A stretch of DNA of 19,362 bases, taken from Planctomycetales bacterium (GTDB lineage: Bacteria > 4484-113). A program made the position numbers. Location of the stretch: positions 1 to 19,362 of the forward strand of contig JBBIJQ010000036.1 of NCBI GenBank assembly GCA_037445915.1. The letters run 5' to 3'. This document shows, piece after piece, positions 1 through 3,000 of this stretch (the first letter of the stretch is position 1; every line of letters starts with the position of its first letter).

Positions 1-3000
1 AAAGCATCGCTGGGAACGCCATCCATGCCTTCATTGTCCAGCGGCACCACCCGCAGCCAGCGGGCATTGCCGTCGGGAAGCTCGTATTGCATCCGCATCC
101 AGCCTTCTGTCGCGCCAGTGCCGTTGGTAAATGGAACAGAGCTCAATACGGTCCATGGGCCGCCCGCGCTGGTTGCTTCTTCCACTTGGTAACTGCTGAC
201 ATTAACGCCGAAGTACATCGCCAAAGGAGTAACGTCGGCAATACCGATTGTTCCGCTTCCATCCCCGTCAATAACCGCGTCAAGCGGGTCAGTGCCAACC
301 GTGTGACCGTAATGCATGGCGATAGGCGTGATATCGGTAATGCCCACTGTCCCGTTCTGGTCGTAGTCGCCGATGTTGCGGTAGTTCCAGCTAAGGATGT
401 AGTCTGCTCCGCTTGGCGTTACGGTAAGGCCGGCGGCCTTGTTTTTGTCGCCGGACGGGGGTGTGCAGGTTAGTTTCCCGCCGTTAGAAAGATTTGAAGC
501 TAACGCCTGCACGAAGGACTTCTTCAATGCGTAGAAGACCTCAGCGTTGCATCCTTTCGGCGGAACCAGCGCGTCCACTTCTGCGCGGATGTCCGCCGGC
601 AGCGAGTTGATGGCTTCCAAGTATGGACCATCCACCCCGGCAGGAAGCTGTGAAGTGGGAGTCGTTGTGTTCAACGATAATGCGCTTGGCCGGCGTGAAG
701 AATGTCCCCCGCAGGCTGCAAGCATGCAAATAACAAGAATCAAATGAATACCCCAAAATTGCGCATAACGCACTCCCTCAATGAAGATGAGTACACGCGT
801 GTGCCTATAAAATTATACCGCAGATACTATAGGGCGGCTATCCAGGCTAGTAAATTCATCTGGCATAGGCATGACCCGACGTCCCCGGTGTGTAGCTATT
901 TTAGGCTGTGGCAGAAAGTGGATTCCGATGGTGTACTTACAGTGAAAGGGGTGTTTGGAGGAGACTATGCGCACACCAAGTTGCCTAGCTGGACGGCATG
1001 TTTGGTACGGCTTTGCGGCTATTATACTGGCGTTGCTGATGGTTGCCTGCGGGGGCGGGCGCCACAACCAGCAAGCCGCGCTTCCACTTGAACAGGCACC
1101 AATGGGCATTGCCACGCCTGCAACACCGCAGACGCCTGGGACGCTTGCCGAAGCGCTGGCGCAGCTTGATGCGCTTGCTATGCCCGAGGGCGTGTCGCCA
1201 CAGGTGTGGAACGACTTGAAGGCAAAGCTGCGGGAAGGCCTTAACGACCGCTTCGGCGGTAAGGGCGCTGCGAAGATTGCCGCGAAAGCGCCGACCGGGG
1301 AGGAGAACAAGGTCTGGTGGATTTATACTGAAGGCGGCACCGAATACGTTCCAAGGAAGCTTGTCTGGCGCTACCAGAATTCCGGCGACTTTGATTTGAA
1401 TGGAGTTGTAGGTGTTTCGGACATTGTCCCATTTACGCAGGCCTTCGGGGCGAAAGTCAGCGAGAAGCCGGATTATTACACGCTGGACTTGAACAGAAAC
1501 GGCCTCATTGATATTGCAGATATTACGGGAATCGCGCGGAACTTCGGAAACGAATGCTACTCTTACAGGATTTACGTCCGTGATGGGGTTGATAATCTAA
1601 CGGATATTGGCGGAAAGGCCAGGACTTCAGGTCGCCATGAAGCAGGAACCCTTCAGTTTGAGTTTGAGCTTCCATCGTTGATGAACTTTCGGCCGATACC
1701 CAAACTCCTTGTATATCCGCAGGACTCATCTGAAGGGCTCGGAGAGCCTTCATATATTTACTACGGGGCAACGCGAGAAGATTTGGGAACGCGGCTAGCT
1801 TCAATCCCTATAGTTGTTGGCAGCCCGGGCGAGAATTCCGCGACCGCCCTAGCGAGGTGGGAGTTTCCAGCGGAAATGGGGCGGAATGCAGCAATGGGAG
1901 CATCAACCGTAATATGGCTGGCTCAGCCCGGGCACTACGAGTTTTTCATGATATCAAGCGGGGATGAGTACAGCATTAGACACAACTACGAAGTGGATAT
2001 AGTCACGCAAGATTCGCTGCCAAGCATAAGGCTGTATTCCCTCGGCACTCCAACCGGGCCATTGCTATACTGGTCGAGAGACGGGTTCGCGGACATGCCA
2101 GTAACGCTGGAAGTATGGCGGGACGGCGAGAAGCTAACCGACCTTTCGCATTACAGCTGGCACTACATGGATAAAACAGCCGGATTGGAACAGCACACAT
2201 ACCAGCTACGCGCGAAATACGGCAGCTTTACCGCTTCAAGCTCATCACCGCTGCAGACAGGTGGGCAGAATTACATCGGCGAACACCTTTTCCTGCTTGC
2301 CGAGCCCACCAGACTAAATGGCGATGCGAAAAGCCAAGTCGCTGCGCTGCTGGTAAACACGAAATACAAGCTGGCTGCAATTCCCACTTTGCGTTTCACG
2401 ATTGAAGGAGCCCCTGCTGCGGTTTCTTCGTTCAAACCGGCTGTCATGCTAAGGGTTAACAAAAGCTCCACGCAAGCAGAGTCTGAACTGCAGTTCTACA
2501 GTTATTGGCTTCCCGTATATCAGACGGGCAGCACAGCTTTTGAAATTGCGGCAGTTCCAAGGAGCTATTGGATGAACTGGGAAGAAATCGAGGCTCCTGC
2601 TCCGGATACATTACCGCCCGGAAGCACCCTGCTTTTCGGACATTTCTACCTAGAAACCTCAATCCTAGCCGGGGCATCAAGTTTGCAGCCTTGGATGAAT
2701 CAAGGCGGATCGTATAGTTTTTATATTGACGAGTTCCGCAACATGCACTCGTTTGAAAACGTGCATTCGTTTGATCTCACTACTAATGCGACCGGGCAGG
2801 CGGTGCAGGCATCGCCAATTTCCGGCCAGTTATCTCTTGGGCGGCCACCATTGCCAGGCGACTTCAACGGAGACGGCATAGTTTGGATGGATGATACTTC
2901 GGCCTTTATTATCTACTTCCAGATGGCCGGTGGGAATCCTGTTACGCCGGAGACTGAAAGCGCGGACATGAATGGAGACGGCTACATCACCTTCATTGAT

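Follow-up and report, generated by a model that had tools for sequence, protein, structure and literature searches.

Lipoproteins encoded throughout the genome of this Planctomycetales bacterium are predicted to carry, close behind the lipid anchor, an fn3-like β-sandwich whose B-C loop accommodates an entire two-repeat dockerin, its calcium loops intact. Dockerins are familiar from secreted enzymes, in which they form terminal plug modules, and our literature search found no report of a dockerin nested in fn3 or of lipoprotein dockerins. As a whole, the structure is best explained as a membrane-proximal, calcium-dependent docking foot with putative cohesin binding, a tentative reading that we regard as a little short of probable.

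The gene at the contig end and its neighbor

The window, that is, the whole stretch of 19,362 nucleotides analyzed here, opens with gene g0866 (3..773, minus strand), which begins at a GTG codon (771-773) and runs for 257 codons until the contig ends. Its ORF is open at the 3′ end and breaks off where fn3 strand G begins. The genome-wide survey's note had described this 257-residue protein as the minimal member of its family; it proves to be a contig-end fragment that continues on another contig, C19. The first 55 nucleotides of the window are an exact overlap with the last 55 of C19, in frame with g0866, and the 873-residue, 5′-open ORF found there begins with the same 17 residues with which g0866 ends. 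This continuation ORF carries PKD domains, and on the joined sequence g0866 is predicted to make up the N-terminal 257 residues of a lipoprotein about 1113 residues long, with PKD repeats. Logan contigs cover window positions 331-1000 only, with breaks at 344/384 within the first dockerin repeat, and none extends to position 1 to span the join between C19 and the contig of the window (C36). The stretch is present in four DNA sequencing runs, all from one study, and no RNA run is among the sequencing runs listed. The shortest complete family member in this genome has 358 residues (C49).

Read along the minus strand, g0866 begins with a predicted signal peptide (residues 1-20; 714..773), MRYAQ followed by a hydrophobic stretch, and a lipobox, LAAC (711..722), ending in the predicted lipidated Cys21 (codon 711-713). 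Two glycines follow, and this C-G-G context recurs in most paralogs. A low-complexity linker, unconserved in the paralog alignment (residues 22-58; 600..710), leads into a two-helix hairpin at about residues 59-93 (495..599), whose motif AL.EL.A...P.GV....F..LK..L marks the members that we call class A. Residues 100-133 (375..476) form strands A and B of the fn3-like sandwich, with the motif K..[CS].PP.G..N and, in strand B, Trp129. They are followed by the two-repeat dockerin of the B-C loop (residues 134-189; 207..374), which the profile search of the PDB matched to dockerin 2y3n_B, and then by strands C, C′, E and F and the beginning of strand G (residues 190-257; 3..206), where the contig end cuts the domain. 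The two calcium loops of the dockerin, DYDQNGTVGITD (333-368) and DGDGSGTIGIAD (234-269), are each followed by D[IV]TP[IL]AM.[FY]G.

The lipoprotein signal that the survey had placed just ahead of the module is thus found in g0866 as a hydrophobic segment plus LAAC, with residues 100-257 matching the family module. Lgt (1.7e-47) and LspA (1.5e-21, split across two contig ends) are encoded in the genome, and together with the lipobox they identify g0866 as a predicted lipoprotein. No LolA was found in the genome, which is 90% complete. Surface exposure of the proteins of this family is assumed; they could be periplasmic lipoproteins, because Omp85 is present in the genome.

Divergent from g0866 lies a 695-residue paralog, g0867 (955..3042, plus strand), with a lipobox-like LMVAC. 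Its fn3/dockerin module spans residues 107-263 (1273..1743) and was detected both by our own HMM (domain E 1.4e-36) and by the genome profile search (6.0e-56). This protein ends in a second, canonical Dockerin_1 (residues 634-683; 2854..3003; Pfam 8.1e-9, 36 bits against a cut-off of 22.9), the helix sequences of which are unlike those of the embedded type.

A dockerin within an fn3-like sandwich

AF2 modeled the nested fold on residues 35-254 of L001, a complete paralog, from an alignment containing 27 paralogs, and reached a pLDDT of 96.0 and a pTM of 0.90. When this class A model was compared with 48161 chains by VIA-align, all 50 of the matches listed were fn3 domains or fn3-type β-sandwich modules of larger proteins, led by 6q9m_B with a Z of 7.6 (rmsd 2.1, 90 residues aligned), a value below 8 and hence in the range that the tool grades as middling. 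Of the 105 residues of another chain, 7y5r_A, 100 aligned with model positions 53..217; since only about 72 model residues come after the insertion, the strands ahead of it must take part in this alignment. The same chain matched the predicted class B model, described below, with a Z of 8.4 (rmsd 2.2, 93/105 residues), and Foldseek gave 12 matches to the class A model at E≤1e-3. A PDB profile search aligned both repeats of dockerin 2y3n_B to profile positions 80-138 (E 1.6e-9), and weak fn3 matches (titin 8e-7, gp130, 3mpc) fell on positions 136-201, which correspond to strands C-G.

Sequence order points the same way. In all 27 paralogs the dockerin comes after the motif PP.G..N.V.DL of strand A and the Trp of strand B, and ahead of the C-strand Tyr, C′, E, F (Y.RV.P.D..G) and G. 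A Trp in strand B and a Tyr in strand C are hallmarks of fn3, and at least 90% of the 27 sequences retain the corresponding reference residues W81 and Y150. The dockerin of the paralogs consists of two repeats in tandem, each about 22 residues long and made up of a calcium-binding loop and a helix, with D/N ligands at loop positions 1, 3, 5 and 12. In the first loop D1, G6 and D12 are each present in 27/27, N/D3 in 24/27 and D/N5 in 26/27; in the second, D1 is present in 24/27, D/S/N3 in 25/27, D/N/S5 in 23/27 and D12 in 25/27. The predicted models of both classes display the seven-strand β-sandwich of fn3.

AF2, VIA-align and the profile search of the PDB agree with the survey's placement of the dockerin between strands B and C. 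A passage of PMC3821032 describes the N and C termini of dockerins as touching in an "intramolecular clasp", so insertion into a loop is feasible. That dockerin and Ig-like domain are ordinary tandem neighbors and their nesting a product of the model is very improbable: the topology comes from predicted AF2 models and Pfam fn3 does not match the module, but strand motifs flank the dockerin on both sides in every paralog, the C-terminal piece of about 72 residues is by itself too short for a sandwich, and the aligned parts of fn3 chains, 90-100 residues long, extend to either side of the dockerin.

The survey's note had given the module 165 residues. This core is borne out, but the unit reaches further upstream, to a full shared foot of about 205 residues that also holds either a hairpin or a cohesin-fold domain. 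Class A members have the two-helix hairpin (helices H12-21 and H30-46 of the paralog model, pLDDT 98), which is found in 185 of 200 fetched homologs with the full module. Class B, with nine proteins in this genome, has a cohesin-fold domain in its place. AF2 renders each arrangement as one confident body (pTM 0.90 for hairpin plus module; pTM 0.85 for cohesin plus module, linker blocks at pLDDT 85-89), and these high values suggest that the upstream element packs on the module; an intramolecular role therefore fits as well. D[IV]TP[IL]A is common to classes A and B, so this motif could be structural.

Some members lack the upstream element, namely the second module of C18_12312 and C58_10781, which has only about 20 residues after the Cys. 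Two modules per protein occur in C18_12312 and in 8 of the 200 fetched homologs. The distal parts of the foot proteins consist of PKD/Ig repeats, β-propellers and similar non-catalytic domains. Two candidate module-only proteins were also seen: P0207 (254 residues; 5 contigs, the longest 12 kb), which ends just past strand G, and P0191 (269 residues), which ends within the F-G loop.

Family size, distribution and database coverage

Our own iterated HMM, run on six-frame ORFs of the genome, yielded 38 domains in 35 ORFs, including 27 full modules in 26 ORFs. The survey had counted 39 domains in 36 proteins and 29 full copies in 27 proteins. A crude scan detected a lipobox in 23 of the 26 full-module ORFs and inspection by eye added two more, the last being 5′-open. 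Among the 200 fetched homologs, 169 have a lipobox-like motif; the module starts at a median residue of 93, and at or before residue 120 in 173/200.

At 1e-10 the module occurs in 24/24 genomes of the phylum with 10 to 100 matches each (33 in this genome), in line with the phylum-wide expansion reported earlier. Occurrence outside the phylum had been left open in that report; at E≤1e-15 the module was found in 0 of 97 sampled genomes of other phyla, against 24/24 within the phylum. To our knowledge the phylum has no cultured member, an impression gained from its MAG-only records. With 10-100 copies in genomes of 1.5-4.1 Mb, we estimate that the module sits on about 1-3% of all genes. A 212-position profile retrieved 909 representative clusters at 1e-30, more than the 603 obtained earlier with a different, shorter profile; these homologs are currently unnamed and constitute a new family for domain databases to model. 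A search for related loci with eight close sequences returned 77 loci from about nine MAG assemblies, its patterns being too narrow to probe other phyla, and none of 50,697 phage records matched the module by tblastn.

Existing models largely pass the module by, as the survey had claimed. Across the 35 proteins Pfam fn3 matches only downstream domains and never the inside of a module, and NCBIfam places nothing on the module in 6/6 proteins. Dockerin_1 recognizes few embedded copies (3/35 proteins at E≤0.01, g0866 not among them; seven embedded places in a further scan), and in this genome only C18:12762 (30.2 bits), C10:29493 (23.9) and L025 (26.8) exceed its gathering cut-off of 22.9 bits. 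The best scores in the ESM Atlas were at most 0.86 and serve as leads only. One 159-residue ESM Atlas cluster has both Dockerin_1 and fn3, nested or in tandem.

Cohesins, proposed roles and known systems

Cohesins, on which the survey's note was silent, are encoded in the same genome. The N-domain of class B had no match at E≤10 in a sequence-profile search of the PDB, and its fold was therefore established through AF2 and VIA-align: the top eight matches were all cohesins (Z 8.6-9.3, 96-103 residues aligned), the best being 6kgc_A (Z 9.3, rmsd 2.3, 98 aligned). On this predicted model the domain has the cohesin β-sandwich fold, and it may be a trimmed form, because about 100 of some 140 cohesin residues align. 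It occurs in 24/24 genomes of the phylum and stands directly ahead of a module match in 30/30 fetched loci, 20 of them full-length and 10 with strands A-B and the dockerin only. Pfam Cohesin exceeds its cut-off (24.1 bits) in C33 (26.9-30.2 bits) and, only with neighboring matches summed, in C59 (24.3); none of the nine class B proteins reaches it, the sole weak match being L028 at 17.1 bits.

A further candidate is a single-copy, 274-residue Ig+cohesin lipoprotein (C9:16341-17165) with one orthologous match in each of 23/24 phylum genomes; five genomes contain, in addition, a larger cohesin protein that matches weakly. Its cohesin is related to that of class B by hhalign (97.9%, E 5.4e-13), its best PDB match is cohesin 4uyp_A (0.0024), and Pfam Cohesin gives no match in it. 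The gene has a module gene within 1.5 kb at only 1/11 loci, and an operon with module genes was therefore rejected. Complex prediction of a class A hairpin plus module with a class B cohesin (residues 8-135) scored 0.00, a value that points neither for nor against binding.

The fn3 B-C loop lies at the N-terminal pole of the fold, and the dockerin would therefore adjoin both the membrane tether and the hairpin or cohesin. We propose that the foot acts as a calcium-dependent docking device, linking a wide variety of ectodomains to lipoproteins that bear cohesins and thereby perhaps organizing the cell surface. The candidate partners would be the 274-residue lipoprotein, the class B cohesins and those of C33 and C59, which together provide a concrete list for cohesin binding in this phylum. 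Secreted S8 peptidases with ordinary C-terminal dockerins (C57, C27) might use the same cohesins or have a second specificity. Against docking, the dockerin face that meets a cohesin may be covered by the hairpin or the class B cohesin.

Such covering leads to the possible, though somewhat unlikely, alternative that the dockerin needs no partner in trans and forms, with the hairpin or the cohesin of its own chain, a rigid calcium-stabilized base that holds a long PKD or propeller stalk upright on the membrane, class B being an intramolecular cohesin-dockerin clasp. The one-body models of both classes, the location of the insertion loop at the pole to which the preceding domain connects and the position of the cohesin-fold domain directly before the module in all 30 fetched loci favor such a base; it accommodates poorly the members without an upstream element and the conservation of free cohesins, both in the 274-residue lipoprotein and in C33 and C59. 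In addition, the same helix motif in both dockerin repeats would allow a symmetric dual binding mode, which is known from type I dockerins.

Quite improbable, in our judgment, is that the foot serves as a tag by which an export or sorting apparatus recognizes lipoproteins and delivers them to the surface or to a given envelope layer, following the logic of C-terminal sorting domains and merely re-using the dockerin fold. Its nearly constant N-terminal position behind the lipobox, its many unrelated cargo architectures and its restriction to one phylum in the sample searched would suit a tag, and NCBIfam NF041540, "GC-type dockerin domain-anchored protein", offers by its name a precedent for dockerin-like anchor tags. 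However, a search covering Omp85, Lgt, LspA and LolA identified no candidate machine, a folded domain of 200 residues with intact calcium sites is large for a pure signal, and some proteins carry two modules.

Extended to the whole envelope, the docking reading would give a cell surface built from lipoproteins joined by membrane-proximal cohesin-dockerin bonds into a calcium-dependent, S-layer-like lattice, which we consider unlikely but worth stating. Dozens of nested-dockerin feet would plug into the single conserved Ig+cohesin lipoprotein and the class B cohesins, class B proteins could chain head to tail because they carry both partners, and secreted dockerin-tagged peptidases might be captured too. 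If true, this would be an organizing principle of the cell envelope not described for any diderm. Docking by the foot would in any case point to a non-cellulosomal use of cohesin and dockerin in organizing a diderm envelope, and the foot itself may be of use in protein engineering as a dockerin scaffold that is compact and rigid.

Cellulosomal type I/II dockerins (PF00404; 2y3n_B, 1ohz_B) share with the embedded ones two tandem F-hand repeats, D/N at positions 1, 3, 5 and 12, a helix after each loop, and the presence of cohesin-fold domains in the same genome. Unlike them, the embedded dockerins lie in a loop of another domain and not at a protein end, are N-terminal and adjoin a lipid anchor, belong to non-catalytic PKD/propeller proteins from a candidate phylum of diderms, and have their own helix motif, D[IV]TP[IL]AM[HN][FY]G, most copies falling below the Pfam cut-off. 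Cohesin and dockerin domains without cellulases are also described for Archaeoglobus fulgidus (A. fulgidus; cohesin 2xdh) and, in passages of PMC8542988, for Cloacimonadota, whose S8 peptidases bear C-terminal dockerins as in this genome; the dockerins of these systems are terminal, and those passages describe no lipoprotein foot or nested fn3.

Class B resembles CipA of C. thermocellum (cohesin-X-dockerin; 3kcp, 4fl4) in its order of cohesin, Ig-like module and dockerin; Foldseek aligned its model with 4fl4 and 3kcp over about 300 columns, but at an rmsd of 28-29 Å, so the relative domain geometry differs. In X-Doc dyads an Ig-like module supports the dockerin, and X-Doc chains (4wi0, 4u3s) match the module profile beginning with the strand that immediately precedes the dockerin. 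Unlike CipA and X-Doc, the chain here returns after the dockerin to finish an fn3-type sandwich, a true insertion, and does so at the N-terminus of a lipoprotein instead of the C-terminus of a scaffoldin. For the class B model, Foldseek ranked first (E 3.1e-6) the Coh-FN3 of C. perfringens GH84C (2w1n), likewise a cohesin followed by fn3 in a non-cellulosomal protein. It differs from class B in having no dockerin in its fn3, in coming from a secreted enzyme of a Gram-positive bacterium, and in domain orientation (VIA-align rmsd 15.7 over 179 residues).

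Topology of the module

The ORF g0866 (window 3-773, -) opens with a GTG at 771-773 and runs for 257 codons without a stop, remaining open to base 3 at the end of contig C36, which the window spans entirely (genome 1.79 Mb, 120 contigs). Its translation starts with a signal peptide whose end is the lipobox LAAC (Cys21); after GG come a low-complexity linker and two amphipathic helices (residues ~59-93). An fn3 A strand (motif K..C.PP.G..N...L.V) and a B strand with Trp (Y.LSWNY) lead into two dockerin repeats, DYDQNGTVGITDITPIAMHYG and DGDGSGTIGIADVTPLAMYFG. These are followed by a C strand with Tyr (SYQVEEA) and then by PWTVLSSV, MRMQYEL and finally, at the contig end, WLRVVPLDNEGMDGVPSDA.

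The genome-wide survey's note had read this arrangement as a dockerin inserted into an fn3-like sandwich, and structure prediction agrees. AlphaFold2 modeling of a complete paralog, L001 (residues 35-254, alignment of 27 paralogs), gave pLDDT 96.0 and pTM 0.90, with the elements E, H, H, E, E, E, H, H, H, E, E, E, E in order and short G-strand bridges. When this model was compared with 48,161 chains by VIA-align, every one of the 50 listed rows was an fn3 domain or, within a larger protein, a beta-sandwich module of fn3 type; the top row (Z 7.6, rmsd 2.1, 90 aligned) stays below the Z of 8 under which the tool's scale rates a match as middling, and the class B model described below reached 8.4 for the same domain. 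The chain 7y5r_A aligned 100 of 105 residues over model positions 53..217, and as the chain has only ~72 residues after the insertion, the sandwich must include the two strands that precede the dockerin. The sequence profile matched solved dockerins in the PDB at 1.6e-9 and fn3 proteins weakly, over strands C-G, and the calcium-loop positions of the dockerin are conserved in the family alignment. Dockerin N and C termini touch each other, according to PMC3821032, so that such a domain fits into a loop. The predicted models make it very likely that the dockerin is nested in an fn3-like sandwich.

Two classes of upstream element

The survey's description held for the dockerin and fn3 parts of the module, but it overlooked a conserved element immediately ahead of them, either a helical hairpin (class A) or a predicted cohesin-fold domain (class B). 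Module and upstream element together are termed the foot here. The hairpin was recognized by our own filter in 15 of 27 sequences of this genome and in 185 of 200 fetched homologs, and in the AlphaFold2 model (pLDDT 98) it forms one body with the module.

In nine proteins of this genome a domain of ~130 residues takes the hairpin's place. Its sequence profile returned zero matches against the PDB. The model of L013, a class B member (residues 17-317, 27 phylum-wide sequences), reached pLDDT 90.9 and pTM 0.85; the top eight VIA-align rows for its N-domain were cohesins (Z 8.6-9.3), and Foldseek placed the cohesin-FN3 construct 2w1n first and also listed the cohesin-X-dockerin fragments 4fl4 and 3kcp. 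Judged by its predicted structure, the domain is a cohesin-fold domain. It occurs in all 24 phylum genomes (2-19 matches each). All 30 loci fetched show a module match directly behind it; for 10 of them the HMM match is limited to strands A-B and the dockerin. The same restricted match characterizes one conserved class B group, the orthologs of C15:30412-34083 (L127, L128, L130, L131, L133-L135, L137, L142), whose complete-frame proteins measure ~1220-1320 aa; their C-terminal fn3 half has either diverged or been replaced.

Family size, distribution and assembly breaks

An HMM seeded with g0866 residues 85-257, iterated and run on six-frame ORFs of this genome, found 38 domains in 35 ORFs; 26 ORFs hold full modules, 27 in all. 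A lipobox was detected in 23 of these 26 by a crude scan and in two more by eye; one ORF is without its N-terminus. Both the multi-copy family and the lipoprotein signal ahead of the module were confirmed. Downstream lie PKD, Ig-like and fn3 domains, SBBP/PQQ-type beta-propellers and CarboxypepD_reg, and no catalytic domain was seen there at the level of Pfam domains. The divergently transcribed neighbor g0867 (window 955-3042, +) is a paralog with a second, canonical C-terminal Dockerin_1 at 2854-3003 (+) beyond its nested one, so that two dockerins of differing sequence type are combined in one lipoprotein. More than one module was present in 8 of 200 fetched homologs. The 449-aa L024 (C18:12312-13661, +) carries a tandem pair, the second without a preceding hairpin or cohesin. 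In two further matches, C25:16466-17104 (-) and C64:51-539 (-), the frame is interrupted by stops (a TAA and a TGA); these are pseudogenes or assembly errors.

The proposed phylum-wide expansion was borne out, as all 24 genomes contain the module (10-100 matches each). Among 97 genomes of other phyla in the same domain, each from a different family and together a sample rather than a census, none had a match at E<=1e-15. The module occurs in 909 clusters of the representative library at 1e-30, in 2191 at 1e-10 and in 9841 at 1e-3. Homologs are named only hypothetical, PKD repeat, delta-60 repeat or BamB-like. Public relatives are MAGs called 'Planctomycetales bacterium' or 'bacterium', with 'UBP7' in two isolate names; according to a preprint, UBP7_A is a phylum separated from Planctomycetes.

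The view of g0866 as a minimal member of 257 aa had to be abandoned. Window positions 1-55 are identical to the terminal 55 nt of C19 (C19:35378-35432), and no other contig end of this genome overlaps the window start by at least 15 nt. A 5'-open ORF of 873 aa at C19 32809-35430 (-) starts in the g0866 frame with RVVPLDNEGMDGVPSDA, the final 17 residues of g0866, and then supplies the G strand that g0866 lacks, PKD domains and a long region at the C terminus. From this overlap and the shared residues, the full gene most likely has ~1113 codons. The smallest complete member in this genome, on C49, is 358 aa long; elsewhere there may be proteins that consist of the module alone, such as the homolog P0207 (254 aa, on 5 contigs). 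Contig ends truncate 7 of the 35 family ORFs. The public contigs of four DNA runs without exception stop or branch at 344/384 (window region 331-384), inside conserved dockerin repeat 1. Paralogs evidently fragment assemblies at this repeat, and MAG-based family counts are therefore lower bounds.

Candidate cohesin partners and possible docking

Two further lipoproteins of this genome contain cohesins, and a Pfam Cohesin match on C59 is marginal. The 638-aa L158 (C33:13690-15606, -) exceeds the Pfam Cohesin cut-off at residues 406-491 and, with its long Pro/Ala/Glu-rich linker and coiled-coil-like C-terminal tail, looks like a stalked anchoring cohesin. The 274-aa L161 (C9:16341-17165, +) combines an Ig-like domain with a C-terminal cohesin homolog; hhalign related the latter to the class B domain at 97.9%, its best PDB match was the cohesin 4uyp_A (0.0024), and Pfam matched nothing in the protein. 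One orthologous match per genome was found in 23 of the 24 phylum genomes (22 full length, one cut by a contig end) and none in the remaining genome, which is 78% complete; in five genomes a larger cohesin protein is matched weakly as well. A lipobox is present in each of the 11 orthologs fetched. L161 is a candidate for a receptor shared by the nested dockerins.

Foot anatomy, conserved calcium sites, membrane-near position and co-occurrence with cohesins were shown here. The foot would dock in a calcium-dependent way, linking varied ectodomains to cohesin lipoproteins, and we tentatively favor such docking in trans. The main rival, a somewhat unlikely one, is an intramolecular pedestal with the dockerin covered by the hairpin or the cis cohesin, which the high pTM values fit as well as they fit docking in trans. 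That the foot is a sorting tag seems improbable. Dockerin, fn3, cohesin and lipobox are already known parts; their nesting, lipoprotein context, two-class foot and phylum-wide expansion were found neither in the literature searched nor in Pfam or NCBIfam, consistent with the survey's claim that no model there covers the module.

Ordinary C-terminal dockerins occur in g0867, a TIG-domain protein and two subtilase (S8) peptidases with Dockerin_1 (C57:5245-7986, -; C27:1-951, +), all with helix sequences unlike those of the embedded type. The peptidases suggest a protease-bearing, non-cellulosomal cohesin-dockerin system in this genome. LolA was not found in this genome, which is 90% complete; Omp85, Lgt and LspA are encoded, the gene of LspA (signal peptidase II) seemingly split across two contig ends (C44:15591-15821 and C76:8423-8659).
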